64,000 bases of DNA from Candidatus Limnocylindrales bacterium. Lineage in GTDB: Bacteria > Moduliflexota > Moduliflexia > Moduliflexales > JAUQPW01. Location of the stretch: NCBI GenBank assembly GCA_035559535.1, contig DATMBG010000034.1:1-64000 (forward strand), given 5' to 3'. The notes beneath the pieces were generated by a model that was not told where the DNA came from, made no database searches, and saw only the letters and a list, made by a program, of their open reading frames with translations. Shown here one piece after another: positions 40,445-57,577 of this stretch; positions within the stretch are counted from its first letter, which is position 1; the number at the start of each line of letters is the position of its first letter. A program made the position numbers and the translations under genes.

Positions 40445-40589
40445 GACCTCCTCACATGAGCTTTGGTAAGCAAAATGAATTCGGCTTCCTGATGCCCGAG
40501 TTAAGCAAGCACGAACTTAAATTGGAGCGCCCAAGGGCATCAAGCAAGTTAATAAGAAAAGTACTACTCCCTGCACCCCCCTCCGGGGA

Positions 40590-40698: not shown

Positions 40699-40699
40699 C

Positions 40700-41446
40700 T
40701 TAAGGTTCTCCTTTTATCCGCTCCATCACCTTACTGGTGATATGATGCTCTCTTTCCTTAACCACCGCCAAGACGACCAATTTAAAGAAAGGTATGGTGG
40801 TACTGATTGCCGAAGCCAATTGGGCAGTTTCCAACAACCAACCGAACAAAAGCCCTGCAAGGCGCATAATCAGGAGAAGCACCCACAGAAAACACCCTCC
40901 AATAATAGGCGCCAATAGTACATATACAAGGGGTGATTTTATGTCGGCGCCTACCAACATAAGTACCCCTAAGGTAAGAGCAATGATCGCCATTGCTATA
41001 CTGACCATACCCCCGGCAATGACAATCTCACCGGTATAGATCCCCGCATCCATGACCCTTGTTATATACCCCTCTTTTGCCCACGGTCGGGATAGTGGCT
41101 TAAATCCAGGCAATATGGGGGGTTTAAGTTTCGACGGTAGAAGCCGATCATATATCTCCTGAACGTCTCCACTGGGCGGCCCATTCCAGATGCATCTATA
41201 AAATAATCTTGACAATTTAAAGGGATCCACCTGTTCGACACCCCTGACAAAAGAGTCATTAAGATTTCGCAGCTTCTCCCGGAATTCAGGCGATAGAAGA
41301 TCCACTATCTTTTCTGTGAAGGCAGAGAAAACAAAGATAATGAGTACGGAGATAAACCACTTTCGGGCCTTCTGCCAACTACGCCTGTCGGTTGATCCTT
41401 CTAACTGAGAGGATGGTTTCTCCTCCTGTCTGGTCGTATCGGCCAT
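40700..41446 (-). CDS. Hypothetical membrane protein
   Basis: ORF with one N-terminal and several C-terminal TM segments. Confidence 0.65.
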   Translation of the reverse strand: MADTTRQEEKPSSQLEGSTDRRSWQKARKWFISVLIIFVFSAFTEKIVDLLSPEFREKLRNLNDSFVRGVEQVDPFKLSRLFYRCIWNGPPSGDVQEIYDRLLPSKLKPPILPGFKPLSRPWAKEGYITRVMDAGIYTGEIVIAGGMVSIAMAIIALTLGVLMLVGADIKSPLVYVLLAPIIGGCFLWVLLLIMRLAGLLFGWLLETAQLASAISTTIPFFKLVVLAVVKEREHHITSKVMERIKGEP

Positions 41447-41881
41447 ATCCTTTTCCTGTAACACAGATAGGTCTATAAGTTAGGAGCCTTACAATTCCTT
41501 ACCTTCTCCTATCAGATTCGTTGTGAAAGCATTGTATAAAATGGTTACCCCGGCGAATAGAGTCGAACTGTCGGAATTATGGGTCCCATAAAAGCGAGAG
41601 GGCCTGACACCTTGCAGTAATCTGAAATCGACGAGGTTAACTACTTTCAACCTGACAAAGTTTTACGGTTGTTTTAGTAACGACCCTTTGCGGATGCCTT
41701 TATCTAACAACCCTTTATAAGAGTTGTCAAGAACAAAAGGTGGGTAGCTTCTTTCTGAGGTATCCAAAAATTGTATAATCGAGTTTGCAAATTCCCTGCG
41801 GGTACTGATTTTCGGTTAAGTATATACAATTTTTTATACAGACTCCGAGGTAAATCCGAAAAGCCGGCCGGGTTATTCTTT

Positions 41882-42577
41882 TTATCCCTGCAGGTCCTGT
41901 CCAGGGTCTGATAGGAGGTAGTGTACGAACCAGTCGGTTGCAAGCCGCGCGACTTCTTCCAGCGCACCGGGTTCTTCGAAAAGGTGCGTCGCTCCGGGGA
42001 TGACCTCCAGTTTCTTTTCCGTGCGGAGCTGTGCCAGTGCCGCCCGGTTCAGATCGATCACCAGGGTATCTTCTCCACCCACGATGAGAAGCGTGGGGGC
42101 CTGGACCCGAGGCAGAAAGGACTCTGCCAGATCCGGGCGTCCACCCCGTGAGACAACTGCTCCTACAACCTTCGGACGTTCTGCCGCAGCAACCAGTGCA
42201 GCCGCCGCACCGGTACTGGCACCAAAGTAGCCAATTCTGAGGTTTTGGGTCTCTGGGTTCTGCCTGAGCCAGTCTGTGGCACCCACAAGCCGCTCAGCCA
42301 GCAGCTTGATATTAAACCGGAGATGTCGAAGCTGCATATCCACTACTTCCTCTTCTGAGGTGAGAAGGTCCATGAGTAAAGTCGCAAGCCCGGCCTCGCG
42401 AAGCACCCGTGCAACGTATCGGTTTCGAGGACTATGCCGACTACTCCCACTCCCATGCGCGAATACCACAATCCCTCGCGTACCTCCGAGCCCCTCTAGA
42501 TTCCCTGAAAGGGTAACCGGGCCTACCGGAATCTGGACCAGGTTCTCTTCATCCTGTCTTCTCGATATTCCGTTCAT
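41882..42577 (-). CDS. Dienelactone-hydrolase-like alpha/beta hydrolase
   Basis: FAHGSGSSRHSPRN, GYFGASTG, SRGGRPDL and GATHLFEEPG motifs. Confidence 0.9.
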   Translation of the reverse strand: MNGISRRQDEENLVQIPVGPVTLSGNLEGLGGTRGIVVFAHGSGSSRHSPRNRYVARVLREAGLATLLMDLLTSEEEVVDMQLRHLRFNIKLLAERLVGATDWLRQNPETQNLRIGYFGASTGAAAALVAAAERPKVVGAVVSRGGRPDLAESFLPRVQAPTLLIVGGEDTLVIDLNRAALAQLRTEKKLEVIPGATHLFEEPGALEEVARLATDWFVHYLLSDPGQDLQG

Positions 42578-42923
42578 GGGTATTTCCTCCTTTATTTCTT
42601 ATTTGCTCATCCCTGAATAATTAAAATACTGCCTAAACCCCAGGAGTAACCTTTCTGGTTGCTCTGCTTAAGGGCTATCACAAAGATCACTCTTTAATTA
42701 TACCACCTCTTCATAGTAAATGGGTATCAGCTCAGAAGGAATAACGAGGAAGGAAGTGACTGATTCCATAGAGGGGGTATGGATGAGGTGCCTGTAAAGA
42801 CTTTCTTCAAAAGGATCTGCTATTTTGTAAAGTTAAAATTTTGTAAAGTTAAATTTGAATAAGCTATTCTGCCCTCACCCCAGGCCCCTCTCCCGAGGCT
42901 TCGGGATATGACCTCCTTTTCCC

Positions 42924-43100
42924 ATATAACGGACAGGCTAAAAAGAGGTATATTTCTCCGCCGGCCGATGGTTAGACATTCTCTGGCATTGACGCTTCGG
43001 TCTTATATTTCCCCACGACGGGTGGTGCCACTCTCGATATACTGCTTATCATTGTTCTTCCCTCTTCGCGCCATTTCGTAGCACCTCCCGCGTGTCTAAC
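42924..43100 (-). other. Degenerate terminal mini-cassette with a 23-codon ORF
   Basis: Minus strand: GTTAGAC (43100-43094), GGAGG, ATG MARRGKNNDKQYIESGTTRRGEI*, complementary GTCTAAC (42977-42971), GTTATAT (42930-42924). Confidence 0.4.
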
Positions 43101-43332
43101 GCTATGCCTCTGAGCGGCTGGTATACTTCTTCACGCACAAAGTCGCCTGCGCCACCCTGATCGGTCCCAGGGTCAGTCAGGTAGCCTGCCTTTGATAGCC
43201 CTCAAGCCGCCTTGCACTAATTACCCTTAGAGCAAGGGGAGGCTTTCCATAACATAATGGTTGGTGTTGGCCATGACCATTCGCTCACGCTAGGGTGATC
43301 GCAAAGCTCGGAAGTAGGTTGTGAACCCACTC

Positions 43333-43672
43333 TCACTGGATGAACTCCATAATGCACAACATGACGCCTATGACTCCGAGAATTACCCCCCAGAAGTGCA
43401 TCGGAATGAAAAACAGCCGGTGTGTTGCCCGGTCGAGAACCCTCTCCTTTCCTGTCACCTTATCAATAACTGTCTGGGCTGTGCGCTTGCGCAATAGATT
43501 ACCCACAACCCAAGACAAAGCTGCCGCGATCAATAGGGCAAACTCCAATGGTCCACTTATGAGCCAAATAATATCCTTTACCCCATAAAGCATCGAACAC
43601 GTAATTGCAAAGTAATGCCGCTCCAAAAACAAAGACGACAACGAGAAAACCGAAACCACTCCACATGATCAT
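43333..43672 (-). pseudogene. Frameshifted small membrane protein (cassette cargo)
   Basis: MIMWSGFGFLVVVF...YYLAHKWTIGV, then +1 shift at ~43541 into ALLIAAALSW...IDKVTGKE...HRLFFIPMHFW. Confidence 0.75.
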
Positions 43673-43726
43673 TGTTTATCCCTTTCAGTTTGTTGTGATG
43701 GCGAACTCAAGCGGTATACATGAGAC

Positions 43727-43750
43727 ATCTAACGACCCGGCATCAGAGGT
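43727..43750 (-). other. Remnant half attC (R' core GTTAGAT)
   Basis: ATCTAACGACCCGGCATCAG on the plus strand, ~55 nt upstream of the cassette start codon; other arm not recognisable. Confidence 0.45.
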
Positions 43751-43909
43751 TGACCGCTTTAGAGTTACGATGGACCGCTTACGTGCATACCAAACAACCG
43801 GCGACAGCACATAACACAGCCTGCTCTTCACGTGGGTTGCACAATGGTAAGCTTACAGATCTTGAACAACTCTCAGTGGCGCTCCCATTGAACGCACATC
43901 TCTCCATAA

Positions 43910-44193
43910 ATTGGAGTCCTTCCGGTGTCCCCGGTCTGCACGCAACCACCGGCATCAACTGTTGCTAAATCCCCTTGCTGGAATTAAATGTTCCGATACT
44001 CCGTCATTCATTGCCTAACATTCAGCTGATCAATGCGGCATATTATAGTGTCGGGATCAGTATTCGAACATGATATCTGCTCGGCAGCCTGCGTATGAGA
44101 TATGAAACTAAATATGAAAGATGTGACTAAAAAGATTTTTAGTGCAGGGAATAGACCTGTTCGCTTAGATGTGTCAGTGGATTTCATAGTCAT
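43910..44193 (-). pseudogene. Exported-protein remnant with two in-frame stops
   Basis: AGGAGG RBS and signal peptide; the frame continues ...NVRQ*MTEYRNI*FQQGDLATVDAGGCVQTG. Confidence 0.6.
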
Positions 44194-44245
44194 ACCTCCT
44201 TTCGCAGCCCCACCGGAGCAGCGCATGATATGGTACATCTTTGCG

Positions 44246-44791
44246 CTATGATTGCGTAGCCCGGAAAACGGCGACCTGTTTCAGGAAACGGTCAAAGCTT
44301 TGTGGATCTGGGAAAGCGCGGCGGGGCAAAATGAAAGCCTGTAATGATGTTATATAGACGTATGCAGCATGCAGATCGTTCGCGACGTCTACGACCGCTT
44401 GCCAGGGCGTGATGGATGATTGTCCGGCCGCATTGCTGAACTGAAGTCCGGCGGAATCGATCAGGGCGTGCGTCGGACCCAAGATGTTCCTGAACGTACC
44501 ATCCCGGACGCGCCGCAGTATGGATCGCCTCAGCGACCAGCATCCAAGTGGTACGGCTAATATGGCCATGACGAGCGAAAGCAAAAGTATGGGCAGCGCC
44601 AAGGTAAAGTTCAGCCATAGCTTCGGATTTACAAGAGTGCCAACAATCAGTACCCAGCTTGCTAATCCGAGCCGCAAGGACCAGCGCCGCTGACGGAAGT
44701 ATGGGGAGTGCGCCCAGGTGTAAATCGAGAAACGGACGTAATCCTCTGTTGTTAGTGTGTAATTCAACTCCCAGGATTCCATCATGTTCAC
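44246..44791 (-). CDS. YcxB family membrane protein
   Basis: Two TMs followed by W..V.......AYVY....AFILPRRAF. Confidence 0.75.
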   Translation of the reverse strand: MNMMESWELNYTLTTEDYVRFSIYTWAHSPYFRQRRWSLRLGLASWVLIVGTLVNPKLWLNFTLALPILLLSLVMAILAVPLGCWSLRRSILRRVRDGTFRNILGPTHALIDSAGLQFSNAAGQSSITPWQAVVDVANDLHAAYVYITSLQAFILPRRAFPDPQSFDRFLKQVAVFRATQS

Positions 44792-44799
44792 GGTCGGAT

Positions 44800-46338
44800 T
44801 TAATTCTCAACGGGCAATCTTCGCTTGCAGACATGATTTCCGACCCACATGCCGGGGTAAATATCGTTTCCAAGCAAAATGGTGGGGTCTAGTGAATTGT
44901 CATCGATGCAATAGGTCTGATATCCGTACGGAACCGGGTAAACTTTGCCGGTTTCGGGATCGCGCACCAGTTCCTCGCCAGCCAATGCAGCTACCCAGTG
45001 GCGTGCATCGTGGACCATCGCCTCCTGCCGCCGCTCGAAGGCCTCTAACTGCATTTGCTGTACAGCCCGCCCGGCACTGTCAATGAGCTGTTGCTGTACC
45101 TTGGCGCCCTTCACGATTGTCTGGCCCATCTTGATCAAAATGTCGGCTTCCTGTGCGTAAATGCCGACAAGAGCTGTGGCGAAACGGCTGCCCCAACCCG
45201 GAGTGGGCCGCACAGAGTGAATTACGCCAGCGCAGAGATCGCGCCAGCTCTCAGCTTGACTGGCTGGCACCGAACAGCCGGCGATTAACGCGAGACTCGT
45301 CACCTTCCCTGGCCCTAGTATCGGATTCGGCAGATGGTACATGGTAATAGTGCCCCAGTAATCCAGCGGGCCCATTGGACTTGAGCTGAGGACTTGATAA
45401 AAAGCCTGGGACGCAGAGATTGGGATCAAGTCCGGGTGGCCAAAGGAAAGGCCCTGCCAGTGGGATTGCTGGAGCCGTTCGATCACAAGCTGTAAGCTTT
45501 CCCCGGGCGACCATGATCGGGAAGAATCCTGAAGCTGCATCTGGACGGACGGAATCACGCATTGCATGAGGATATTGCCGAACGGATTAAACCCTTGCGA
45601 GCAACTGGCAATTCTGGCCTGATAACGGAGGTCAGAAACACTGACGATCAACACAATAATCGACGGCTGAGTCTTTCCAGAGGGCGCCATTATGAAGACG
45701 TCGCCTTGGGAGGAAGAGTTAATCGACCAGTCAACCGGCAGATAGACCGTGAATTCACCATTGGCAGATCGCGTCGGCGTCAAGGGAACTGCCGGTGTGG
45801 CTTTTTCAGACGGCGTGGACTTAACCGGTACCTCTGCAGCTTCTATCCTGCCAATCGTAAAGCTGCGCTGCATTTGATCGAACGCGCTTCTGACCAAAGC
45901 AAGTTCCGCTTTGGGCGCGGACTGAATCAAGACAAATGTGTGATCGCCGCTGGCTACACCGGACAACGTAAGATAGGCTTCCATGCCCTTCGGATTGATT
46001 CCCGAATAGGCGACCGATACGCCGTTTAAGCCGGCCAGAACTGCGCCTGAGCGGCCTGTTTCGGTCAACTCGCGCCATTGCCGTCCTATTTGTCCAGCTA
46101 AAGAGACGATCAGGCTGGCTGGATCAGAGGATCCGTGGGAGATGAGTATGGTGAGATACGAACTACCGTGAACGAATGATACAGAGTCGGCATTCAGCGG
46201 TGTAACGGTCCATCCCGGTGGCACTTCGACACGAAACCGGTTCTGTGGATCAGAATAAATCTGCGCAGCTGAGGCGAAGCTGAACACCAGCAGCATGCCC
46301 AGCATCAAAGCGATTGCAAAGCAGCGCTCCCATTTCAT
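44800..46338 (-). CDS. Hypothetical exported protein (N-terminal PsbP/DcrB-like region)
   Basis: Signal peptide; YSDP..RFRVEVPPGW and F.VYLP.DW repeats; 512 aa. Confidence 0.65.
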   Translation of the reverse strand: MKWERCFAIALMLGMLLVFSFASAAQIYSDPQNRFRVEVPPGWTVTPLNADSVSFVHGSSYLTILISHGSSDPASLIVSLAGQIGRQWRELTETGRSGAVLAGLNGVSVAYSGINPKGMEAYLTLSGVASGDHTFVLIQSAPKAELALVRSAFDQMQRSFTIGRIEAAEVPVKSTPSEKATPAVPLTPTRSANGEFTVYLPVDWSINSSSQGDVFIMAPSGKTQPSIIVLIVSVSDLRYQARIASCSQGFNPFGNILMQCVIPSVQMQLQDSSRSWSPGESLQLVIERLQQSHWQGLSFGHPDLIPISASQAFYQVLSSSPMGPLDYWGTITMYHLPNPILGPGKVTSLALIAGCSVPASQAESWRDLCAGVIHSVRPTPGWGSRFATALVGIYAQEADILIKMGQTIVKGAKVQQQLIDSAGRAVQQMQLEAFERRQEAMVHDARHWVAALAGEELVRDPETGKVYPVPYGYQTYCIDDNSLDPTILLGNDIYPGMWVGNHVCKRRLPVEN

Positions 46339-46440
46339 CTTTTCATCTTATGAGCCGATTATGAGCCAATTTTCCCGCATCCCATCCCCTCATCAAAGAC
46401 AGCGCCAACACCATCGTCATAGCCCGTCGGGAAATCGTTT

Positions 46441-46677
46441 TCATCTCCATTCTCCTCGATTAAAGTTCGCTCTTTCTTTCCTTCGTCCCTTACCGCCCAA
46501 TTCAGCCCAAAAGGGGTCAAACCCCGACTTGTGAGGCTCTCTTTCTAACAACCAGCGGGGTAGTATAAATGCACCCGTTGTGGCAACCATAGCAAATAAT
46601 CTCATCCACACGAAGTACCTCAGGGACCTTATCTCCGCCCCCAGTGCGATATGCAGAACAAATGCGGCTTGGCTCAT
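46441..46677 (-). pseudogene. Interrupted first-cassette ORF downstream of the second attI-like site
   Basis: AAGGGA RBS and ATG ~17 nt after the core site; hydrophobic ORF runs into a GGGGTTTGACCCC palindrome near 46514-46526. Confidence 0.35.
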
Positions 46678-46693
46678 TACGGTGTCCCTTACG

Positions 46694-47074
46694 AGCTAAT
46701 ATCAAATAGACCCCAAACCCGGCGTAATATCCAGATCCTTCCTCAACTTTACCCTACTTTAGGAGTATTTCTCCAGTTAATCCAAACCCTACACAGCCCA
46801 AGGGTCCTTTTTTGTTTTCACTATCCTTTATCTTGGGTCTACCTTTCCGGTTTGCTCATACCCTCTAAGTCGTGGTTTTTCTTTAACTTCTCTAACCAAC
46901 TGGACAATTCCGCTCCTATCTGTGGGGATATTGGAACCGGAAAATACCCCAACAGATATTACCTCTATATAATGAAGTACGATGAACTATTTTATAAGTT
47001 TCGCTAAACCATCAAAGGTCATAGTAGGATATCATGACAGAAATGACTCTATTTTATGAAACAAATATTGTCAA
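46694..47074 (-). promoter_or_regulatory. Second, diverged copy of the integron promoter-leader-attI segment
   Basis: Colinear with 56146-56524 (TTTAGGAGTATTTCTCCAG, CTAAGTCGTGGTT, TTAACTTCTC, AGATATTAC); TTGACA-17-TAGAGT promoter; core mutated to ATTAGCT. Confidence 0.75.
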
Positions 47075-47123
47075 GAAAAAACCTCTTTTTTGTATCTGTA
47101 TCCCTTTAGTAGGTGGAAAAAGA

Positions 47124-47205
47124 AACACCCCCATCCTCCCTCCAGGGGGACTGACATAGGGTTGCTGCTGCTGAATCCCCCCTGGAGGGAGGATGGGAGA
47201 GTGTT
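47124..47205. repeat. Long inverted repeat (REP-like hairpin)
   Basis: CCCATCCTCCCTCCAGGGGGA ... CCCCCTGGAGGGAGGATGGG. Confidence 0.85.
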
Positions 47206-47428
47206 CAGACAGAAAAAGTGACACCTATTAAATTGTTGTAGAACCGTCTACTTTATGTTAAAGAACAAAAAGGCTTTCGACATATATAAATTTTTAAACA
47301 CCTTCCAGCCCAGGCTGGAAGGGATGGGCCCACCGCCTGGTACGGGTGGATGATCATCCACCCCTACAGTCAGGCCGCATAGGGCCAGTCTCAATCAGCA
47401 TGCAAAAAACTTTCAATCCCCTGCGTAT

Positions 47429-48375
47429 TTAACGCCAAAGCGTGCCTGGACATCTACCTGGACCTTCTGCGCTTTGATTAGACATCCTTTTTCCCTTAGG
47501 TACTTCCAGGTGCTTTACAAAGTTTCCCTCTGTTCCATCGAACAGAAAAGGGTCTTGCGGTAGTACGCCGATCTGGTGCCGCAGATACCGTATATCCAGT
47601 TCGTCGTGCGGGTGCTTATCGGCGAAAAGGGAGCTCTGCTGCGGCCGATACAACCCAAGCAGCAGATTGACGAAGGTTGTCTTACCAGAGCCATTTGGCC
47701 CCACGAGCGCGGTGAATGTATGGGGTGCAAGAGTCAGGTTGACACCACGCAAGACAGGAGCATGATCGGCGTGGCCAAATGTCACATCGTGCAGGGTAAT
47801 GGCGCCACGCATACAATGGCGACGTGTGCCGGAGTATGGCTCGGGCGGAGTGTGAGTGATTAGTTGTTGCAATGACCCGAGCGCCTGATAGCCGTCTACG
47901 AACGCGGGCACGGCACCGAGAGCATCTTGTGAGTAACGCCGCAACGCGAGCAGAATCACGTTGAAGGCAAGTAGGTTGCCCAGCGAAATGTGTCCGGCGG
48001 CAACCTGACTGCCGCCGATAATGAGGAGAACGCCGACCACACCCAGCAGCATGGCATTCTGGACGGCTTGATACCATGCTTGCTGGCGAGACAATGCTTC
48101 GGTCCCACGCTTGAGCGCTTCGATCTGGATAGTTTGATGTGGGGTCTCTTGCTCTTCGGCGGTTTGTACGCGTGTCAGCGTGATCAATTGCAAGACGGCG
48201 AGTGTGCCACGGCTGTAAGCCTTGAGGGCTTTCACGCGTCGGTCAATTTGCCGCCAAAGCGCCTGCAGTGAATAGCGGTTGATTACTATTAGTAGCGGCA
48301 CAGCGAGCGAGAGGACCAACATCAGCGTTGGATTCAGCCAGACCAACGCCGCGCCGATGCCAATACCGATTTTGG
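47429..48375 (-). pseudogene. ABC exporter (TMD+NBD) fragment truncated at both ends
   Basis: Partial TMD, Walker A GPNGSGKTT and Q-loop LPQDPFLFDGT; no LSGGQ or Walker B; 5' end abuts the sulfotransferase remnant. Confidence 0.8.
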
Positions 48376-49009
48376 AACAAAAGTATCGCCCACCTGCAGA
48401 AAGCGGAAGATGTCCAGGAGAACCTTCAATGGCTTCATGTCCCAATCGTCGTAGAGATAGATGCGAATCTGCTCGCGTGGGAAGCGTTCCAAGTAGGGTT
48501 GAAGGAGACAGTAATAAAAGCCATTCGCTCTATATCGCCAGCCACAAGACCAATTCATTTGCTGGCATTCTTCTTCGGCATCGAGCGCCTGGGCGAAAAA
48601 AAGATGCTCGCGCCCTAACTGGACCATCATCAGATACGACGAATACGCTCGATCAACAGGGTGTCTCAGCACGGCAATCAACCGGGCGTGAGGAACGTAC
48701 AGTCGGATACGCTCCACATATGCCTCACCCACCGTAAGATATACCGGAGAGGCTTTCACCGATGGCGATGTGATGATCACGGGCTCCGCGGAACAATTCG
48801 GCATGATCTTCGAGCTTGAAGATTGTACTACTATTGAAGAATCGTTCGTCGCCAGGTCCGCAGAAATTTAGCCTCTCTCCGTTGAAGGCGAAGAAACGTG
48901 GTTCCTTGACCGGACTCATGTAAATTTGCGGGTGCTGTTTAAGCGCACGATCCAGGGCTGTAGTGCCACTCTTGGTTGCGCCAATGATCAGGAAATTGGG
49001 CATGGGCAT
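48334..49009 (-). pseudogene. Sulfotransferase, frameshifted and C-terminally truncated
   Basis: PNFLIIGATKSGTT...KEPRFF in one frame; SPVYL...LRHPVDRAYS in another (shift ~48755). Confidence 0.85.
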
Positions 49010-49037
49010 ACCAACAACCTCTTGGCCTTTGACTCGG

Positions 49038-50420
49038 TCACACGTGTCTATTTTCACTGAGGAGGCAGCGATAGGCTTCGTAGCAAGCCCGCACCGTGTC
49101 ATAAGCGGCTTTCCAAGTTCCCCCTTTGTGATCATCTATCACCCTCCCATCCGCCTGGCAGGCGGTGAACCACTCACCCCACTCAGGGTCAAAAAAGTGC
49201 CCGAAGGTGAAATCGGCCAGTTGCTTGAAGTAGTCAATGTAGCGGCGCTGCCCACTCAGTGCATACATGAGCACCAGCGCTTGCATCCCTTCGCCTTGCG
49301 TCCACCAGGGTTTCTCAGTGCTGGCAAGAATCCCGTTCCGATACACATATTGATAAAAGCCCCCATGCTGTGCGTCCCAGCCGTGGCGCAAAGTAAAATC
49401 CAGGATACGCTCTGCCGTGGTGTAATATTCTGGAACCCCAGTAACCTGATGCATTCTGAGCAACAGCCAAGCCGCCTTCGAATTGTGCCCGATTAAGGCT
49501 TGGCCACGGACGGACATTGGGTCGTAGACCCAGTTCGTATGGAATCGTTCAAGGACACAGCCATATTTACGATCCACCATTTGCAAGACAATTACATCGG
49601 CAATCTGCCGGGCTCGCTCCAGGTAGGCAGCTTCCTTGGTTGCCTCGTGCAAAGCCATGATGGCGGTCAGCATAACCAACTGAATGTAGCTCATCTTGGC
49701 ATCCGATTTCACCTTCCAATCCGACTGGCAGCTTTCGTAATAACCCAGATGATTTTTGTCCCAAACCCGCTGCTCTAACAGACGATAGGTTCGTACCGCA
49801 TAGTCAAGTGCCGTCTGGTCTTGTGTGACACGGTGGTACTCTACCAAACCCAATAGCACGTACGCCTGTTGGAATGAGTTCTTATCAGGCTCTCTAACAC
49901 GTCCATTCCGATAGACGCTTTTGTACCACCCCCCGCGTTGTTTGTCCCACATGTTTTCGATGAGAAACCTGACTCCTTCCCTCGCCAGTTCGAGATAGGT
50001 GGGAGAACGGAACAATTCGTAGCCTATAGAGAAAGCGCAGACCATACGCCCCTGCATGGCGGTCGCTTTCAGATCATCCTTGTAGACCTGCCCCTGGCGA
50101 TCGAGGTGCGTGATAAAACCGCCGTAGCGCCGGTCAGGAGAATGTCGTTCCCAGAACGGCAATAGAGCCGACCGAATATGCTCTAGGAAAAAGTCGCCGG
50201 TATACTCAGCAGCACTTTTCAGCAGACACAACGGCTTCTGATGGCTTGGAGCAAGCGGCATGCGTGCCTTGAGCCTCGTTCGCGCCCCCTGCAGCCTGGC
50301 ATAGACCTCCCAGAAGGCAAAGGCGAACATATCATGCACGCCTCCATTACCCCGGGGAGACACGAGCCTCTTCACAGGCTTCTTCAACGGTGCTAAGATC
50401 AGATGACGAATCGTCTTCAT
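49038..50420 (-). CDS. AGE family epimerase/isomerase (N-acylglucosamine/cellobiose 2-epimerase-like)
   Basis: LPFW...D..YGGF, Q.R, GH..K.AWLL, GWD..HGG, K.WW.Q.E and KG..WK motifs. Confidence 0.85.
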   Translation of the reverse strand: MKTIRHLILAPLKKPVKRLVSPRGNGGVHDMFAFAFWEVYARLQGARTRLKARMPLAPSHQKPLCLLKSAAEYTGDFFLEHIRSALLPFWERHSPDRRYGGFITHLDRQGQVYKDDLKATAMQGRMVCAFSIGYELFRSPTYLELAREGVRFLIENMWDKQRGGWYKSVYRNGRVREPDKNSFQQAYVLLGLVEYHRVTQDQTALDYAVRTYRLLEQRVWDKNHLGYYESCQSDWKVKSDAKMSYIQLVMLTAIMALHEATKEAAYLERARQIADVIVLQMVDRKYGCVLERFHTNWVYDPMSVRGQALIGHNSKAAWLLLRMHQVTGVPEYYTTAERILDFTLRHGWDAQHGGFYQYVYRNGILASTEKPWWTQGEGMQALVLMYALSGQRRYIDYFKQLADFTFGHFFDPEWGEWFTACQADGRVIDDHKGGTWKAAYDTVRACYEAYRCLLSENRHV

Positions 50421-50458
50421 GGGAAACCTCCAAAAATGTTATTGGCTTAATGTCAAGT

Positions 50459-51136
50459 TCATCTGGCCCGGCGCCGGTCCAGTGCGGCTTTGAGAATTTG
50501 GGTGAACTCGCCCATGACCATCTCGCGGCAGCGAATTGTCAAGTTATTGGTGTGAACTCTTCTACGCATCACCACGTTGGGCAGTATAACGATTTCGAGG
50601 GCTGCTTCTTGGGCCCGAGCATACCAATCAACAAACTGACCAACATGCCAATGCGTCGCAAACAGCCCAACACGCATAAATGCCGCCCGGCGAATCAGCA
50701 TCGCGCTGATGTGCAAGCCGTTCAATGTCATTCCTACAAATCGGGCAGACTGGGCAGCAACACCGGCATCGGTACTGCTGAATTGCTCGAACTGTCCAAA
50801 CACCGCGTCCAGTTCTGGCCGAGCCGCGAGGGTTGTCATTTGTCGCGTGAGTTTCTCTGGCATCCACACATCGTCCGCATCGAGAAACGCAAGAAACTCG
50901 CCGCGCGCCTGCTCGACGCCGTGATTGCGCGCCGCACCCGGTCCCTGGTGCAGCTGAAAGCAATAGCGCACTGGGAATTGCTGTGCCACACGCGCGCTCT
51001 CATCCGTCGAGCCATCGTCCACGACGATAATCTCGATGGGACGATAGGTCTGCGCCAGCACGCTCTTTATCGCTTCAGACAGGTAACGCTCACCGTTATA
51101 GACCGGGATAATGACGCTGACCAGTGATGCAGTCAT
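50459..51136 (-). CDS. Glycosyltransferase family 2
   Basis: VSVIIPVYN, VDDGSTD, ARN.G and FLDADD motifs. Confidence 0.92.
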   Translation of the reverse strand: MTASLVSVIIPVYNGERYLSEAIKSVLAQTYRPIEIIVVDDGSTDESARVAQQFPVRYCFQLHQGPGAARNHGVEQARGEFLAFLDADDVWMPEKLTRQMTTLAARPELDAVFGQFEQFSSTDAGVAAQSARFVGMTLNGLHISAMLIRRAAFMRVGLFATHWHVGQFVDWYARAQEAALEIVILPNVVMRRRVHTNNLTIRCREMVMGEFTQILKAALDRRRAR

Positions 51137-51839
51137 CTCCTAATGAGTGTTGGTAACTGGAAGAGTGCTCATCTTTATAATCCTTAAGCAGAAGACCGGC
51201 TTGCCTTATCAGTAATTTTTCGAACAGCCACCATGTAGCCTTTGTAATATCTCGATGTGAGAATGGAACTCGTTCAAGAACTGGTCGATTGCGATTGTCG
51301 GACGCTCCAAAAAGAGGCTTTTCAGGTTCCCACATATAATGATCAAAGATTAAGATGCTGTCTGGTTGAAGCAAAGCCCAGACTAACCGGGCGTCAGTCC
51401 CTACATCGGCGACACAATGACTCCCATCTATATAGATGATATCGTAACTGTTCTCACGCAGCAGTGGTAGGACGCCTTGTGACCTACCTATTATCTTGAT
51501 GACTTGAGACGTCCGCCCCGAGACCTGGATATTGTGATCGAACCGACTTTCGGCTCTTCGAGACCGAAAGATATCTACACAGATGATCAAGCAGGTAGGA
51601 TGGGTAAGAGTGTTCTCCAGGAACCAAAGTGCCGAACGCCCTTCGTAACTACCAATTTCAAGGAGACGCACGTAGGCTTTTCCTTTGAGATCACCCAGAC
51701 ATTTCCTCCAGACCGGTATTGCCTGTGCGGTATAGTCAGCCGTAAAAGGATGCACTAGGATGTGCCTCTTGAGCCTTTGCAGCAATCGTTCTAGCAGAAT
51801 GATTGCGGCGACTACTCTCTCAGGAATAACCGCCTTCAT
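51096..51839 (-). pseudogene. Class I SAM methyltransferase (Methyltransf_24-like) with C-terminal frameshifts
   Basis: LEIGSYEGRS and IYIDGSH motifs; alternative frames restore ERPTIAIDQFL and GYMVAVRK. Confidence 0.7.
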
Positions 51840-51843
51840 GCGC

Positions 51844-52536
51844 CTAACCTTCCTTCTTCAATTCACGCTTGCGCGCCACTGAACGTCTCAATGCAATAAA
51901 CACATTTTGCATATTCTCCGCCATGTTAACCGAGGTGTTCCTGTCGTGAATGCGCTTCAGTAATAGCACCCGATCAATCACTGCCATTGGCGTGCCAAGA
52001 TCATTCGCGCGGGCGAACCAATCGACATCTTCCGCTGTGCTCATCTGCGGGTCGAATATCCCAACGTGGTTAAACACTTGCCGTCGCGCAACGAGGGTCT
52101 GTATAAGACGGACCGACCAGTCGCCCTCCAGGATCTCTTGCCGGAGGAGCGTAGCGGGAAAGGGGCAGCCGGGTTCTAGAAAGAATTCGATTCGCGTGGT
52201 GGTGTATTGCACGTCGGGATGTTCGATCAAATAGCCAACCTGCACCTCCAGTTTCTCCGGCATCCACACATCGTCCGCGTCAAGAAACGCGAGGAATTCG
52301 CCATGCGCCTCCATGATGCCACGATTGCGCGCCGCGCCTGGACCACTGTGCGGCTGACGGTAATAGCGCACCGGATACCATTGGGCCACACGCGCGCTCT
52401 CATCCGTTGAGCCATCGTCCACGACGATAATCTCGATGGGACGATAGGTCTGTGCCAATACACTTTCAATTGCTTCCCCCAGATAGCGCGCGCTATTGTA
52501 GATTGGCACAACCACGCTGACGAGTGGCGCAGTCAT
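51844..52536 (-). CDS. Glycosyltransferase family 2
   Basis: VSVVVPIYN, VDDGSTD, FLDADD and EDVDW motifs. Confidence 0.92.
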   Translation of the reverse strand: MTAPLVSVVVPIYNSARYLGEAIESVLAQTYRPIEIIVVDDGSTDESARVAQWYPVRYYRQPHSGPGAARNRGIMEAHGEFLAFLDADDVWMPEKLEVQVGYLIEHPDVQYTTTRIEFFLEPGCPFPATLLRQEILEGDWSVRLIQTLVARRQVFNHVGIFDPQMSTAEDVDWFARANDLGTPMAVIDRVLLLKRIHDRNTSVNMAENMQNVFIALRRSVARKRELKKEG

Positions 52537-53576
52537 TGGAGTAGCATTTTCATCATGGTTTCCGATATCCGCTCCAGTTCTGTCCCCAGTTCAAGATGAT
52601 AACAGGGAATTTGTCTGACCAAATCGGCAAGGGCAAGGAATTCGAACTGTCCTGTGCCTGGGAATAGAAAGAGCGAACTCGGAGCGAAGGCTCGCAGTGC
52701 GGCGATCGGTGTAGCCAGGGTCAAAGTAGTTTCAGGACGCCCGGTGACCCGTGTCAGTAAAATCACCCGCACAGGCAAACCCGCGATCAAACTGCTCGGC
52801 TGATACTGATAGAGGTAAAGAAGCGCTTTTTCACTGGCGAGTTCTTCAGGGTTGCTAATGGCAGATAGCAAGGTCGGGAAATTCTCAAGGTGGACAGCAT
52901 TCAGTTTGGCAGAGTTGTAGAGGCTATAGACATACGGCACGCCATTAGGGACCAACAAGCAATAGTCGTCGCCGACATAGCGCCATCCTCCTACGAGAGC
53001 AGCTAAGGCGGTGGTTGATTTGCCACTACCTCCCGACCCTGCCAACAGAACCCCATCTTTCAAATGCCCAACCGCCCCGGCATGGACTAACAAACGCCCG
53101 TGTTGGCGCATCCACCAGTGGAGGATGGCACGCAGGGGAGCGCCCCGCTCGTAAGTCGGAACATGGCAAGCATCTCGAATCCAATACACTCCCAGGTTTT
53201 CTGTAATGTCCAGCGTGCTCACCGCGCCCACATCCGCAGATAGTGCAACATGGATGCGCGTATCACTGAAGCCGCGCACATCACCGCGCGCGATGCAGCC
53301 ATCTAATCCCCAAGGACGCGGCGGCATTGACGTGCCCGTCGAGGCGCTGTCCCACAGACAAATGGTCAAATCCGCCTCACCGATGTCGGAAGACACCGCC
53401 AGATGCTCCAGCGCCGGCGTGATAAACGGCACCAGTGCAGATCCCGCAAACCGCAGGCGAACGATATAACCCCCAATGGTGTAGTAGCGATCAATAGCAC
53501 CGCCGACGGTTTGCTCGGCGCGTTGATAGGCGTCGTATACGCCCTCGAAAAAGGCAAGCGGACTCGTCTCAGTCAT
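52533..53576 (-). CDS. HPr-kinase-like serine kinase (RiPP/lasso-cluster type)
   Basis: VHAGAV, Walker A GSGGSGKSTT, GDD; ATG at 53576 overlapping the PqqD gene end. Confidence 0.8.
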   Translation of the reverse strand: MTETSPLAFFEGVYDAYQRAEQTVGGAIDRYYTIGGYIVRLRFAGSALVPFITPALEHLAVSSDIGEADLTICLWDSASTGTSMPPRPWGLDGCIARGDVRGFSDTRIHVALSADVGAVSTLDITENLGVYWIRDACHVPTYERGAPLRAILHWWMRQHGRLLVHAGAVGHLKDGVLLAGSGGSGKSTTALAALVGGWRYVGDDYCLLVPNGVPYVYSLYNSAKLNAVHLENFPTLLSAISNPEELASEKALLYLYQYQPSSLIAGLPVRVILLTRVTGRPETTLTLATPIAALRAFAPSSLFLFPGTGQFEFLALADLVRQIPCYHLELGTELERISETMMKMLLQ

Positions 53577-54039
53577 GGTCCTCTTTCCTGATCGGCCAGC
53601 CCTGTTCATCCACTTCATGGATCGGATCGAGCAGCAACAAGTCTTGCAGATCGGTATACTTGTGGAGCGACGGCACCTGAAACGCGGAACGCGCCGCCAG
53701 ATTTGGATCCGGTATTGCGGGAGCAGCGTGGGGCACGGATGGTGCGTCATCCAACGGCGCAATGAGCGACTCGCGTTGCAACTCGATCAAGAACTGCTCC
53801 ACTCCTTGCTCGATGTCAGCGCAGTTGCCAGTATAGCGCTGGGTCAGCATGTGGATGATGTCGTTCACCGACGCGTTCTGCGCAATCTGTTCCCAGATCA
53901 CTGAGCCGACGCCATCAGTGCTGAAATATGCGCCGCTGTCGAAATCAATGATAATCGTCTCTCCGTCTATGGTCTGGTGAATCACTCTCGGAGTATTAAT
54001 CCTGAAAGTGGCTGATTGTAGCATTCTCTCCCTATTCAT
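53569..54039 (-). CDS. PqqD-family (RiPP recognition element) protein with leader-like C-terminal tail
   Basis: IDGETIII....GAYF....G..IW...F...L....LI core; tail FQVPSLHKYTDLQDLLLLDPIHEVDEQGWP. Confidence 0.85.
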   Translation of the reverse strand: MNRERMLQSATFRINTPRVIHQTIDGETIIIDFDSGAYFSTDGVGSVIWEQIAQNASVNDIIHMLTQRYTGNCADIEQGVEQFLIELQRESLIAPLDDAPSVPHAAPAIPDPNLAARSAFQVPSLHKYTDLQDLLLLDPIHEVDEQGWPIRKEDHD

Positions 54040-54070
54040 TATTCATCTCCTACGGCATTTGACCCCCTGT

Positions 54071-54096
54071 GCTTAACACGCACGAAACGGTTAGGA
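54071..54096 (-). other. Collapsed attC-like site (R''/R' cores only)
   Basis: Minus strand TCCTAAC-12 nt-GTTAAGC, between the end of one cassette remnant and the PqqD start. Confidence 0.45.
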
Positions 54097-54144
54097 CGAT
54101 GAGAATGTCAGCAAACGCCAGTTCTACGTTCGTATAGGTTCGAT

Positions 54145-54376
54145 CTAGGCATACTCGTACACGGGGACTTGAATCAAACGCTTGGGTTTACTTTGTTGCC
54201 AAGCCATCTTTTGGAGGCGTATCACTGTGTCGGGCGAAAACAACTGCTCGCCTCAGCACAGTCCCGAGCCCTGTTTTCTCAGCGAGAGTATCTCCCTTTT
54301 TGACTACTTTGAGCAAGGGACTGAAAGGGCCTAATGTAGCTTCAAATATCTCTGTTTAACATTTCAGACACTTCAT
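54145..54376 (-). pseudogene. Degraded cassette(s): zinc-ribbon start plus YgiT-type zinc-finger C-terminus
   Basis: GGAGGAGG, MKCLKC*; in another frame C*GEQLFSPDTVIRLQKMAW...P.RLIQVPVYEYA*. Confidence 0.55.
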
Positions 54377-54440
54377 TGCCTCCTCCTCAAGTGATCAGAT
54401 TTAGGTATATTCTAGCCGTCCTTCGCCATAAAAAGACGCC

Positions 54441-54513
54441 AGCTAACACTGAAGCTCACCTGCCACTATAGAGCGCCAGTGGAATAGCGGTTAAGTGGAG
54501 CGTCTTGTTGGGC
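54441..54513 (-). other. attC recombination site
   Basis: Minus strand GCCCAAC...GCTCCACTTAACCGCTAT...ATAGTGGCAGGTGAGC...GTTAGCT; imperfect hairpin with extrahelical bases, 73 bp. Confidence 0.85.
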
Positions 54514-54545
54514 AGTATGAGGTCTGACACCGCGTCGAACCGCGA

Positions 54546-55418
54546 TCAGCGACCACTCCTTTGCCAAGCGTCAGCAGTCTCTCGGGCGAAGTCACGGTAG
54601 TTGCGAGGAGCGTGACCCAATAGTTCCGTCAATGCCTCGATGTCATTGTCGTTCGCGATAAAGCCGCGCTCCACAAACCCTTGGAACATCATACGCAAAT
54701 CGAAGGCCAACCAATTCGGAACGTTCTGCCGCATTTGTTCTTCCCACGCGTCGAAGTCATGTCCCGCATAGCTAATTTCCTTTTGCAGGATCTCACTCCA
54801 TATCGAGGCTGCACCCGGACCGCTCAAGAGGCTCGGGCCGACCAGGTTGTAGATTTTACCTTGATGGCCGTCGCTCGTCAGGACAATGGCCGCGGCTTCG
54901 GCGATGTCACGCACGTCTACCGCTGAAATACCCTGTGAGCCCAAGGGCATTGGGTAAATCCCAGCCACTGTCAGCGGTTCCTTCAGCATCGCATCATTTT
55001 GAAAGAAGTAGCTCGGGCGGAGAATGGTGTAGGGGACATCGAAATCCTTCAGCGCTGCTTCGATCATCAACTTCGACGCGAAGTGCGGTACGTCCTTGAA
55101 ACGATCCGCTTGAAAAACCGATTGGTACACCACATGCTGAATCTTCAGCTTCTTTGCCAGATTGCAGACGATGAGACCCTGCGTCAACTCGTCAGGAACG
55201 ACCGCATTCAGCAAATACACTTTCTCTACGCCATCGAGCGCTTGTTCAATTGTAACTGGATCGAGCAAATCGCCAATGGCAACTTCAACGTCCGACGGGA
55301 GCGTCTTGCTCTTGGCCTCGCTGCGAACCAGTGAGCGGACGTTCGTATTGCGTTTCCGGAGCTCCTTGATCACCTGAGAGCCAACCCTACCGGTGCTGCC
55401 TGTTACCAGAATCTTCAT
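54546..55418 (-). CDS. NmrA-family NAD(P)-binding protein (integron cassette 2)
   Basis: TGSTGRVG, H..SK..IE, LRP..FFQN and VDVRDIA motifs; bounded by attC sites. Confidence 0.9.
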   Translation of the reverse strand: MKILVTGSTGRVGSQVIKELRKRNTNVRSLVRSEAKSKTLPSDVEVAIGDLLDPVTIEQALDGVEKVYLLNAVVPDELTQGLIVCNLAKKLKIQHVVYQSVFQADRFKDVPHFASKLMIEAALKDFDVPYTILRPSYFFQNDAMLKEPLTVAGIYPMPLGSQGISAVDVRDIAEAAAIVLTSDGHQGKIYNLVGPSLLSGPGAASIWSEILQKEISYAGHDFDAWEEQMRQNVPNWLAFDLRMMFQGFVERGFIANDNDIEALTELLGHAPRNYRDFARETADAWQRSGR

Positions 55419-55453
55419 CTTGAAGGATCCTCTTGCGCTATGCGTTTTGGACC

Positions 55454-55521
55454 ACCTAACGGCCTGCGCTTGAGCGGCGGCTAAGCGCAGCGAAGCCGTC
55501 CGCTCAAAGCGCTTGTTGGGC
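55454..55521 (-). other. attC recombination site
   Basis: Minus strand GCCCAAC-AAGCGCTTTGAGCGGACGGC...GCCGCCGCTCAAGCGC-AGGCC-GTTAGGT, 68 bp. Confidence 0.9.
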
Positions 55522-55526
55522 GGGCA

Positions 55527-55883
55527 TTACTCATCAAAGCGGCGAATGCGAAAGATTTCTGGCGCAATAACGGCAAAGGCACGTGGCAATTGGGCAGCAT
55601 GTTGATTGATCGCCAAAGCCACTATCTCTGCCTTCCGGGTAGGTGATAGTCCTGCCAGGCGTATCAATATAATCCCGTGTGCATAAAGACGCTGACGAAA
55701 GATCATCTCCCCAAAATCCTTATCCGCAGTCAGTAGCAAAGCGGTTTCCTGATTCGCTCGTGCCAAAACAACATCATCGGATATTCCTGGCTCCATTTCG
55801 GCAACATACCACACCACATGACCATCTCGCCGAAGACGCTCAACAATATGACGGTCAACACTTTCATCAGCCACGAAATTCAT
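55527..55883 (-). CDS. DUF5615 PIN-like toxin (cassette 1)
   Basis: F.ADE, GH.V, SDD.VL, LLT.DKDFG and G.I..RL motifs. Confidence 0.88.
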   Translation of the reverse strand: MNFVADESVDRHIVERLRRDGHVVWYVAEMEPGISDDVVLARANQETALLLTADKDFGEMIFRQRLYAHGIILIRLAGLSPTRKAEIVALAINQHAAQLPRAFAVIAPEIFRIRRFDE

Positions 55884-56116
55884 GTTTCCGTCTCAGCCAC
55901 AGGGTAAATCACGTCAGCGCGCAAGGCTTCTTTGGCAAAGGCGATAGCTGCCAGCACTGCTTCGCGTGTCAGCCGAGGGTGGGCCTCAAGAATCTGTTCG
56001 ATGGTTTCCCCTGCCGCCAATTTCTCCAGAATGAGTTCCACCGTGATGCGCGTGCCTGCGACCACAGGTTTGCCCATCATAATTTTGGGATTTGATACGA
56101 TCAATTGCTTTTCCAT
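55880..56116 (-). CDS. DUF433 antitoxin (cassette 1)
   Basis: NP.IM.GKPVV.GTRITV..IL..LA.G....IL..HP.L. Confidence 0.92.
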   Translation of the reverse strand: MEKQLIVSNPKIMMGKPVVAGTRITVELILEKLAAGETIEQILEAHPRLTREAVLAAIAFAKEALRADVIYPVAETET

Positions 56117-56145
56117 ATGAATCACCTTTCACAACTACTATGCCC

Positions 56146-56165
56146 GCCCAACATGAAATAAACAC
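56146..56165 (-). other. Putative attI site
   Basis: Minus strand GTGTTTATTTCAT-GTTGGGC; the following GTTGGGCGGGCA is exactly complementary to TGCCCGCCCAAC at the end of cassette 1. Confidence 0.75.
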
Positions 56166-56494
56166 CAAAAGTGTCCGAATATCCAGCCCTCTGGACTATC
56201 CCTATTACCCCATTTTAGGAGTATTTCTCCAGGAAATTCAGACATTACACACCAAAAGCGTCCTTTTCCTTGTTTTTAATAGACCTCTTCTCGAGTGTAT
56301 TTCCCTGATTTACTTATATCCTAAGTCGTGGTTTCCCCTTAACTTCTCCATGCTTCGGTAGAATTTTACCCCTCTATTCTTTGAAATATTCATACCGAAA
56401 ACTACACCGCAAGATATTACACTTTTATACGATGTTGCACGAGGAGCTACTCTACAACTCGATAAACAAAAATCATCGTCACTTAAGCTAGTTC

Positions 56495-56524
56495 ATTTTA
56501 AAATTACAAAACAAATCTTGTAAA
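56495..56524 (-). promoter_or_regulatory. Putative cassette promoter (Pc-like)
   Basis: TTTACA-18 nt-TAAAAT pointing toward attI; positionally homologous to the promoter at 47046-47074. Confidence 0.55.
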
Positions 56525-56645
56525 GAAAAAATTTCTTTTTTCCAAAACTCGACTATATTTTTTTCCAAAAAATGCGCCTTAATTTCGGTAGTTAACCGTC
56601 TCGGTTGACATGAGTTTATTTTTTACTGTGAAAAGGAGGAATACC

Positions 56646-57100
56646 ATGCCAGAAAAACCCAAACTGCTCGATCCATTACACAATACCCTCCGTCCCACAA
56701 GCCCTACAGCAAACGCTAAGATTTGGCTTATGTGGATGGGAATAAACGCTTTATTTACTGTCAAGGGGGACGTTTAACCTACTCAGGGGGATGTTTCTTG
56801 TTGGGAAACAGTAGGTTAAGTGTCTCCCTTGACAGAGTAATGGGGGCAAAGGAGGTGGAGGAGTTTATAACCCATCTGGCCCGTGAGCAAACCGTGGTGG
56901 TCAGTACGCAGAATCAGGCATTAAATGCTATTGTGTTTCTCTACAAAGAGGTTTTGGGAATTAAATTCAACCAATTACACGTAGAACAGGCAAAAAAGCC
57001 TGAAAAGCTGCCGGGGGTCTTTACGTGTAGGGAGTCATCAGTCCGGCAGAGAGGATGTAAAAATTTTGATGGTTCTGGCTTAAAAATTCTTCTGGGCTAA
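56646..57100 (+). pseudogene. intI: Integron integrase pseudogene (N-terminal domain only)
   Basis: AGGAGG RBS, MPEKPKLLD, frameshift and stop, then AYVD..KRFI and MGAKEVEEFITHLA....STQNQALNAIVFLYKEVL...AKKPEKLP.V; catalytic domain absent. Confidence 0.9.
56759..56834. mobile_element. 76-bp MITE-like insertion inside intI
   Basis: 25-bp imperfect IR TGTCAAGGGGGACGTTTAACCTACT / AGTAGGTTAAGTGTCTCCCTTGACA. Confidence 0.7.
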
Positions 57101-57234
57101 AACTCCCGTCGGCAAACGCTATCCTGCCTAAGGATCCGGGTCAATTTAGTCGGTATCTTAGTTCCGTTAGGAGTGATCTATTCATAGCAAAATCTTTTGA
57201 CTTTCCCTGCTATAATTAGATTGCCCCGCTGGGG

Positions 57235-57393
57235 CCGTAGTATTAAGTTAAGGGTGGAAGTCCTTGTTAAAGACAAAAACACCCCCACCCTCTTCCTCCC
57301 CCGCTTCGCAGGAGAGTGGACTTGGACCACAGCGTTCCTTCCCCTGCGGTAGCGGGGGAAGGTCAGGAAGGGGGCCTTAACTTAAGGTCATGG
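57235..57393. mobile_element. MITE-like element nested in a REP-like repeat
   Basis: IR ...TTAAGTTAAGG / CCTTAACTTAA...; flanking CGCTGGGG duplicated; internal CCCCCGC/GCGGGGG palindrome. Confidence 0.6.
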
Positions 57394-57577
57394 TGCGCTG
57401 GGGCTGTACAACAAGAATTACCTATCCCCAACTGATTAGCACTGATAGCTCGCCTAAAATCCCGTTGACATTTCTTTCCATTCATGCTAACACTTGTTAG
57501 TCATACAGATTTCGTAGACTTTACATTTGTTTTGAGGGGTTGGTAGTTTTTACTTTTTATAAAGGAGAATATAGCGT

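Follow-up and report, generated by a model that had tools for sequence, protein, structure and literature searches.

CALIN and In0 elements, as they are termed in IntegronFinder, are degraded integrons that are tracked by clusters of attC sites or by lone integrases, and attC sites themselves act as folded bottom strands. We know of no recognized category for lone attI/Pc modules, given that attI is too variable to be detected by sequence. The class 1 integron platform comprises intI, Pc, and attI, with ORF-11 encoded in the leader. One review describes an effect of the attI1 leader with ORF-11 on cassette translation and a dispute over a riboswitch claim for the same region (PMC8876359). Second attI or delta-attI sites occur in class 1 and class 2 arrays and have been shown to recombine (PMC12901181). 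Gene cassettes that lack an ORF and possess promoter activity have also been described (PMC6557892, 10.1101/2023.11.21.568050).

The window analyzed here, a 64,000-nt stretch of a 5.6-Mb genome (G000), contains two copies, designated A and B, of a module that can be compared with each of these systems. Relatives of the module were identified in the genome of a sister species (G001) and on a metagenome contig (L044). The module shares with the class 1 platform a divergent integrase gene in L044 and (truncated) at copy B, a putative outward promoter, and, at copy B and on contig C120 of G001, a G/TTRRRY junction (with the slash denoting the crossover point), and it is predicted to resemble attI1 in placing an attI-derived leader on every cassette transcript. 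It departs from the textbook platform in that its candidate Pc is intergenic and located ~340 nt from the core, in that it has a terminal hairpin of ~120 nt, and in that no L box is adjacent to the core. The integrase start codon associated with the module is ~495 nt from the core, compared with ~250 nt and ~285 nt in two other integrons of G000 (on contigs C50 and C42, respectively), both of which have a comparable layout of integrase, promoter plus leader, and GTTAG-type core. No sequence similarity was found between the module and the upstream regions of related integrases.

Arrays of the attI1-gene-attI1/delta-attI type resemble the present case in having a second attI copy downstream, in the same orientation, and within one array, a configuration that probably arose via attI recombination (PMC12901181). 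The second attI sites of class 1 and class 2 arrays are nearly identical to the resident attI or are shortened versions of it, whereas copy A is ~35% diverged and carries a whole promoter-leader-attI unit of ~400 nt with a mutated core, positioned after 7 kb of non-cassette genes. ORF-less cassettes, as portrayed in the reports cited above, are likewise noncoding array elements able to drive downstream cassettes. They are bounded by attC and have defined ends, however, whereas the 5' ends of the module vary and the module is proximal to the integrase in one intact integron (L044). The likeness to CALIN and In0 elements lies in the persistence of integron parts without a working integrase. The case differs from those described in that the whole module is duplicated with ~35% divergence, in that the long leader has a hairpin abutting the core, and in that most members of the family lack an integrase.

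Copy A (46687..47091, minus strand) and copy B (56141..56544, minus strand) were delimited by a search of the whole genome with nhmmer and a profile built from four copies, with E values of 2.5e-107 and 3.2e-118, respectively. The original prediction, according to which 46694-47074 is colinear with 56146-56524, was borne out by this search, by pairwise alignment (65-69% identity), and by a BLAST cross-match between A and B in the 5.6-Mb genome (69% identity over ~262 nt, E value of 3.3e-19). The description of the divergence as mainly transitions between identical blocks did not hold, given that the differences also include at least seven small indels whose lengths are not multiples of three. 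Genome-wide BLAST with A or B returned only the query itself and its partner (next best E values of 0.08 and 0.53). Further genome matches to the four-copy profile were a weak, partial one on contig C11 (E value of 0.0024) and two that were disregarded (0.48 and 0.68). In the search for additional copies, A and B were thus the only strong ones in the genome.

Both copies have sigma-70-like hexamers at the distal end, where a promoter had been proposed. The promoter-like site of copy A is TTGACA-17-TAGAGT (47046..47074, minus strand) and the candidate Pc of copy B is TTTACA-18-TAAAAT (56495..56524, minus strand), with each site matching the consensus at 10 of 12 positions. The hexamers occupy homologous positions in A and B, a place common to all aligned copies, and are conserved in L044 and in the copy on contig C120 of G001. 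In copy A as well as in copy B, ~340 nt lie between the -10 hexamer and the core, which agrees with the leader length put forward originally. The proximal attI-like cores were also as predicted on the minus strand: the degenerate ATTAGCT in copy A (46694..46700), in which the crossover base has changed from G to A, and GTTGGGC in copy B (56146..56152), which on reading of the sequence forms the junction of attI with cassette 1. The predicted break in homology at the core was seen in all four aligned lineages (A, B, L044, and C120), with homology ending at G/TT (ATT in A) and the DNA beyond being unrelated. Each copy heads its own minus-strand cargo, as had been noted, with different genes behind A and B. 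Of the 397 alignment columns, 186 are invariant over the four lineages.

Copy B is flanked by a truncated integron integrase gene on one side and by cassette 1 on the other. The integrase gene (56647..57151, plus strand) retains approximately the NH2-terminal 150 codons, as judged from matches to PF13495 and TIGR02249 (profile positions 41-107 of 315, 60 bits) and a tblastn match at 56828-57151. In alignment with the intact gene of L044, no similarity is left beyond ~57040-57150, and a palindromic insert near 56754-56836 interrupts the gene. This insert is a near-perfect palindrome of ~80 nt that replaces ~30 nt of coding sequence relative to the L044 gene. On the other side of the module, cassette 1 (55527..56125, minus strand) encodes a toxin-antitoxin-like pair of DUF433 and DUF5615/PIN-like proteins (Pfam E values of 8.5e-24 and 1.2e-23) and is followed by attC1 (55454..55521, minus strand), a site of 68 nt with R'' GCCCAAC and R' GTTAGGT that forms a single hairpin of -35 kcal/mol. 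Cassette 2 (54546..55418, minus strand) encodes an NmrA-like NAD(P)-binding protein (Pfam E value of 2.2e-28). It is followed by attC2 (54441..54513, minus strand; 73 nt; R'' GCCCAAC, R' GTTAGCT), which was identified by reading and by script and is the last recognizable attC.

The R'' flank of attC1 (ATGCCCGCCCAA) is exactly complementary to the 12 bases after the core G of copy B (TTGGGCGGGCAT), and this match is the signature of a true cassette boundary. The attC sites were sought with a custom hairpin script rather than with IntegronFinder, and degenerate sites could therefore escape. The scan yielded 39 candidates at or beyond 36 kb that passed the thresholds, two of which (55454-55521 and 54441-54513) were accepted. 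The others were dropped by eye as lying inside long ORFs, as supersets or opposite-strand versions of the accepted two, or as not being single hairpins, with this sorting being a matter of judgment and not of a statistical test. Two canonical attC cassettes follow copy B. The truncated gene is the only integrase gene of the cognate type in G000. On the basis of these sequence features, copy B appears to be a genuine integron platform, the integron itself having decayed.

Each large sequence collection was scanned with one 28-position IUPAC pattern, a procedure that copies differing in the pattern escape. The pattern detected two stretches in genome contigs, one on C120 of G001 (loci L041 and L042) and one on a Chitinophagaceae contig, and a single stretch in metagenome contigs (L044). 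The Chitinophagaceae match was rejected as a chance occurrence, given that no similarity was apparent outside the pattern. A BLAST search of 61 genomes with copy B gave matches in only two, G000 and G001. Copy B and L044 are 84% identical and all other pairs are 65-71% identical (65-70% for copy A with each of the others), values that indicate three roughly equidistant lineages and that A did not arise from B by recent duplication.

In L044, ~100 nt separate the module from the start codon of an integron integrase gene that is divergently oriented and full-length (TIGR02249 score of 478 bits against a cut-off of 265; match to positions 1-313 of the 315 in the profile), and the core is GTTAGCC. 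The arrangement at copy B is the same, but with the truncated integrase gene. Copy B and the integrase-linked module of L044 together support the proposal that the module corresponds to the promoter, leader, and attI region of an integron. On C120 of G001, a contig of 3.6 kb, the core GTTGGGC is followed by a single gene for a YgaP-like membrane protein and then by a decayed attC. This decayed attC behind the YgaP-like cassette has an R'' complementary to the nine bases that follow the core G. Upstream of the C120 module is a co-directional ORF of unknown family and no integrase gene, with 450 nt of contig left on that side.

Three further members of the family are less complete. Contig C57 of G001 carries an A-type copy, with 76% identity to copy A, in which ~110 nt are missing internally and the core reads GTG. 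It lies just downstream of a pseudogene of the DUF5615 family represented in cassette 1, and no integrase was found near it. Contig C121 of G001 has at its edge a fragment of 175 nt that is 98% identical to the C120 copy. The weak match on C11 of G000 (5439-5557, corresponding to L076 2940-3058; nhmmer E value of 0.0024) is related to the promoter block and to a portion of the 5' leader and is situated upstream of a gene for a secreted protein of 331 amino acids, with no integron parts nearby. The 22-nt promoter block was found, with up to three mismatches, only at B, A, and C11. A link to an integrase is therefore present in two of the approximately six to seven family members (full-length in L044 and truncated at copy B), so that the platform identity of the orphan copies is drawn from homology.

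No module was found next to the other integron integrases of G000 and G001, and nhmmer with the four-copy profile detected none at integrase relatives from the sister family (loci L060-L069) or upstream of the intact integrase on C23 of G001. So far, the module family appears restricted to the genus. The attI region upstream of the C23 integrase (L045 2452-2987), which has no similarity to the module, contains a 9-nt inverted pair (GCCGTCTAA ... TTAGAYGGC) in several copies, along with two direct repeats of ~45 nt with GATGTTAGA, and these repeats could be integrase-binding repeats. Integron integrase genes or fragments were present at at least six loci in G000 and at least eight loci in G001, most of them with stops or truncations, and seven of the nine genomes of the phylum that were examined carry at least one integron integrase. 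Such loci are unusually frequent in G000, in G001, and in the phylum set.

In all four copies, the ~120 nt that precede the core form a single long, imperfect hairpin, at the base of which an invariant AAAAC pairs with the core GTT. The hairpin domain of copy A (46698..46816, minus strand) has a minimum free energy of -35.3 kcal/mol, and that of copy B (56150..56274, minus strand), closed by AAC...GTT, has one of -37.6 kcal/mol. The z scores for the sense strand are -2.44 for A, -2.41 for B, -2.13 for L044, and -4.23 for C120, with the corresponding antisense values being -0.51, -1.15, -1.43, and -4.44. The better folding of the sense strand indicates that the hairpin of A and B survives through G-U pairs. 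This reliance on G-U pairs in the folding models points to a transcript (or the top strand) rather than to an attC-type bottom strand.

Comparative folding of the four copies with RNAalifold, one of the checks that the original prediction had called for, gave a sense-strand consensus of -37.4 kcal/mol with a z score of -4.73 relative to column shuffles, a value reached by none of 200 shuffles. The antisense strand gave a z score of -2.17, which was reached by 4 of 200 shuffles. The structure conservation index was 0.41, and paired cells amounted to 90.9% compared with 89.4% in shuffles. Many one-sided changes from G-U to G-C or A-U were apparent. Compensatory change was detected in 4 of 75 pairs, with 46 of 500 shuffles reaching that count. 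A search of Rfam 15 yielded no matches at gathering score over the window and, at E values up to 1, one chance miRNA match outside the module. The idea of a structured leader thus gains from strand-specific folding but not from covariation, which is not significant with four sequences, and the models leave a leader RNA structure plausible.

The leader is rich in purines and the opposite strand is rich in pyrimidines, and the open frames of the plus strand are an artifact of this pyrimidine richness. Long plus-strand frames (46651-47007 and 56092-56361, for example) were rejected as genes, given that frames shift between copies and that their starts lie outside the homologous part. The 67 substitutions between copy B and L044 are likewise spread 26/19/22 over the codon positions of such frames. 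Sense-strand ORFs of 4 to 11 codons behind a shared ATG were also rejected, with no Shine-Dalgarno motif being present and the ORFs not being conserved in B or L044.

Could the conserved unit be chiefly a structured regulatory RNA, either a leader acting in cis or a small RNA gene that has a promoter of its own, and the link to integrons be secondary? The sense-strand RNAalifold result, the prediction of the 3' hairpin in all four copies (z scores of -2.1 to -4.2), the one-sided changes at G-U pairs, and the weak, partial match to the promoter and 5' leader on C11, where the gene that follows encodes an ordinary secreted protein, would all fit such a role. The low count of compensatory changes, the structure conservation index of 0.41, the failure of Rfam to return anything beyond a chance miRNA, and the lack of a terminator behind the hairpin argue against it, and an RNA gene alone does not explain the precise break of homology at the cassette junction. 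We consider this explanation very improbable.

The ends of the module bear on a different explanation, that it is a mobile, ORF-less promoter cassette whose last ~125 nt form a long attC-like site closed by AAC...GTT. The modules of B and L044 would then be first cassettes, and A, C120, and C57 would be insertions elsewhere in arrays or at secondary sites. Such a cassette would account for most copies not being beside an integrase and for the positions of A and C57 downstream of other array material, C57 following the DUF5615-family pseudogene. It would also fit the 3' hairpin with its invariant AAAAC at the base, and promoter-active ORF-less cassettes are in print (PMC6557892, 10.1101/2023.11.21.568050). 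The 5' limits of homology, however, differ by tens of bases among A, C120, C57, and B/L044, and none of them follows GTT or a G/TTRRRY junction. In L044, with its intact integrase, the stretch from the integrase start to the module contains no other GTTRRRY site. Folding of the bottom strand is poor in A and B, as shown by the antisense z scores, and the real attC sites of the array are 68-73 nt with a GCCCAAC R'', whereas the R'' of the module reads RAAAAC and not RYYYAAC. The variable 5' ends and the poor folding of the bottom strand weaken this explanation, which we regard as improbable.

The same pairing of the core GTT with AAAAC over a ~120-nt hairpin might alternatively mark the module as an unusual attI, with an attC-like folded site that would also be transcribed as a structured, purine-rich leader. 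The orphans A, C120, C57, and the weak C11 copy would in this case be booster promoters and landing pads in trans, usable by integrases encoded elsewhere in the genome. We think this possibility quite improbable.

The genomic context of copy A is defined by comparison with G001. The window is colinear with contig C184 of G001 at 39002-43010 and 57453-58899, with 90-94% identity, and the corresponding blocks in G001 are only ~240 nt apart. The intervening ~43016-57450 is therefore a 14.4-kb island (43016..57450) that contains both modules and is missing at the syntenic site of G001. Copy A is located 9.4 kb downstream of copy B, in the same orientation and in the same island. The order on the minus strand, starting from intI, is copy B, the two attC cassettes, a 7-kb non-cassette cluster, a palindromic repeat, copy A, and 3.7 kb of small or unknown genes that reach the island edge. 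Given its position within the island and the array direction of copy B, copy A is an in-array second copy and not an independent locus.

The non-cassette cluster between the modules (47429..54039, minus strand), in which the script found no attC, was assigned with Pfam and contains genes for PqqD-like and HprK-like proteins, two GT2 glycosyltransferases, a methyltransferase, an epimerase-fold protein, a split sulfotransferase, and a 3'-truncated ABC transporter. The whole set may represent a cluster for the modification of peptides or glycans that is in decay. The GT2 paralogs (50459-51136 and 51844-52536) flank the methyltransferase gene, and their 5' 287 nt are 79% identical. The split sulfotransferase consists of two ORFs (48334-49135), and the truncated ABC transporter gene occupies 47429-48445.

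Directly upstream of copy A is a dispersed palindromic repeat of ~145 nt (47092..47237) with inverted arms at 47125-47149 and 47178-47202. Dozens of copies with 75-86% identity are present in G001, and many variant contigs were found in metagenome runs (four DNA runs), which marks the hairpin as a multicopy element. On the basis of these copies and variants, the repeat resembles a REP or MITE element. Its minus strand presents a stem followed by a T-rich run, and from our reading of this stem and T-run it is terminator-like. The hairpin was not reported by the terminator scan, its loop being too long. Other dispersed repeats, with many G001 copies of 80-90% identity, are present at or beside the left and right edges of the island (42840-42906 and 57282-57374). 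Elsewhere in the window, an array of 8/12-nt tandem units of the GGGAGTAT type is followed ~60 nt later by an inverted counterpart with units of the CACACCCC type (32639-32854), the two arrays together forming a long imperfect inverted repeat. The window also contains a perfect 37-nt direct repeat (40590-40626 and 40662-40698, with a spacing of 72 nt) and a perfect 26-nt tandem duplication (5915-5966).

One contig of DNA run X2 covers 46582-47038, including most of copy A, with zero differences, and no informative joint between the modules was seen among the contigs of the four DNA runs. The genes downstream of copy A (43333..46677, minus strand) comprise a 78-aa ORF, a 512-aa gene of no known family that is absent from G001, a YcxB-like gene, a 76-aa ORF, and a 108-aa ORF. 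The custom script found no attC in this region and hence no attC-bounded cassette such as had been envisaged behind copy A. Within the island, no minus-strand match to RAGCTAAY, the R'' corresponding to the copy A core, was present.

A tblastn-type search of the genome found no integrase remnant beside copy A, which is thus without an integrase, as the original prediction stated. Its further suggestion of a second, separate integration platform fared less well. Copy A is inside the island of copy B and faces the same downstream direction, and the ATT core, the absence of an attC cassette after it, and the truncation of the cognate-type integrase all speak against a working platform. The wider notion of several platforms without integrase was upheld in part, by the C120, C57, and C121 copies of G001 and weakly by C11 of G000, but not by copy A as a stand-alone element.

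These features raise the question of whether copy A is simply a nonfunctional fossil of a second platform or of an old rearrangement, drifting neutrally and without a present role in transcription. Its core has mutated to ATT, neither attC nor a cassette junction follows it, and its surroundings are decayed, as seen from the truncated ABC gene, the split sulfotransferase, the truncated intI, and the inserted dispersed repeats. The A-type copy on C57 is visibly decaying, and covariation is not significant. Copy A nevertheless retains both hexamers (10 of 12 positions) at 30-35% divergence, shares the conserved blocks of the integrase-linked copies without a large indel, and has a sense-strand hairpin that depends on G-U pairs (z score of -2.44, versus -0.51 for antisense). 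We therefore view the fossil explanation as tenable but unlikely.

The reading that we prefer, to which we assign a probability of roughly 55%, is that one integron lineage of this genus has the module as its Pc-leader-attI platform, with copy B being its resident, decayed representative and copy A a diverged in-array copy that is a probable internal promoter. The module would consist of an outward sigma-70-type promoter (Pc), a purine-rich leader of ~340 nt, a terminal hairpin of ~120 nt, and the attI crossover G/TTRRRY, at which cassettes would be inserted. Copy B would be the resident platform of a dying integron, of which the truncated intI and the two attC cassettes are left. Copy A may have originated in the fusion of two related integrons by attI x attC or attI x attI recombination, after which the second integrase and the 3' end of the ABC gene would have been lost together.

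Given its ATT core, the lack of an intact cognate integrase in G000, and the lack of cassettes behind it, copy A has probably ceased to function in recombination. The preservation of its hexamers, conserved blocks, and hairpin, together with the terminator-like repeat before it, suggests a role as an internal promoter and 5' leader, and its promoter and leader may restart transcription for the distal genes of the island. With a promoter at 10 of 12 consensus positions and a hairpin z score of -2.44, compared with the ~110-nt deletion and GTG core of C57, copy A looks maintained. Three observations count against our preferred reading. No integrase remnant is present beside A, C120, or C57, and no canonical L box (RYYYAAC) is present within 30 nt upstream of the core, with the only invariant AAC being that at the hairpin base ~120 nt upstream. 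In addition, the starts of the three orphan copies all fall within ~100 nt upstream of the -35 hexamer, which would be somewhat unexpected if independent random deletions had produced them.

To our knowledge, hardly any attI sites have been characterized beyond the clinical integron classes, given that such sites share no sequence and are not findable by homology. The present case provides an attI/Pc module that is well delimited and can be aligned, from a phylum that has hardly been sampled (nine genomes, seven of them with integron integrases), and it offers a cassette junction, a long conserved leader, and several copies stripped of the integrase. If neither transcription from copy A nor a role for the hairpin holds, the locus would be a tidy example of integron decay. 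If the hairpin matters, a cis-acting RNA or DNA element would be added to the integron toolkit. If copy A is transcriptionally active as a promoter, it would illustrate how the distal genes of a sedentary array are naturally expressed without the main Pc.
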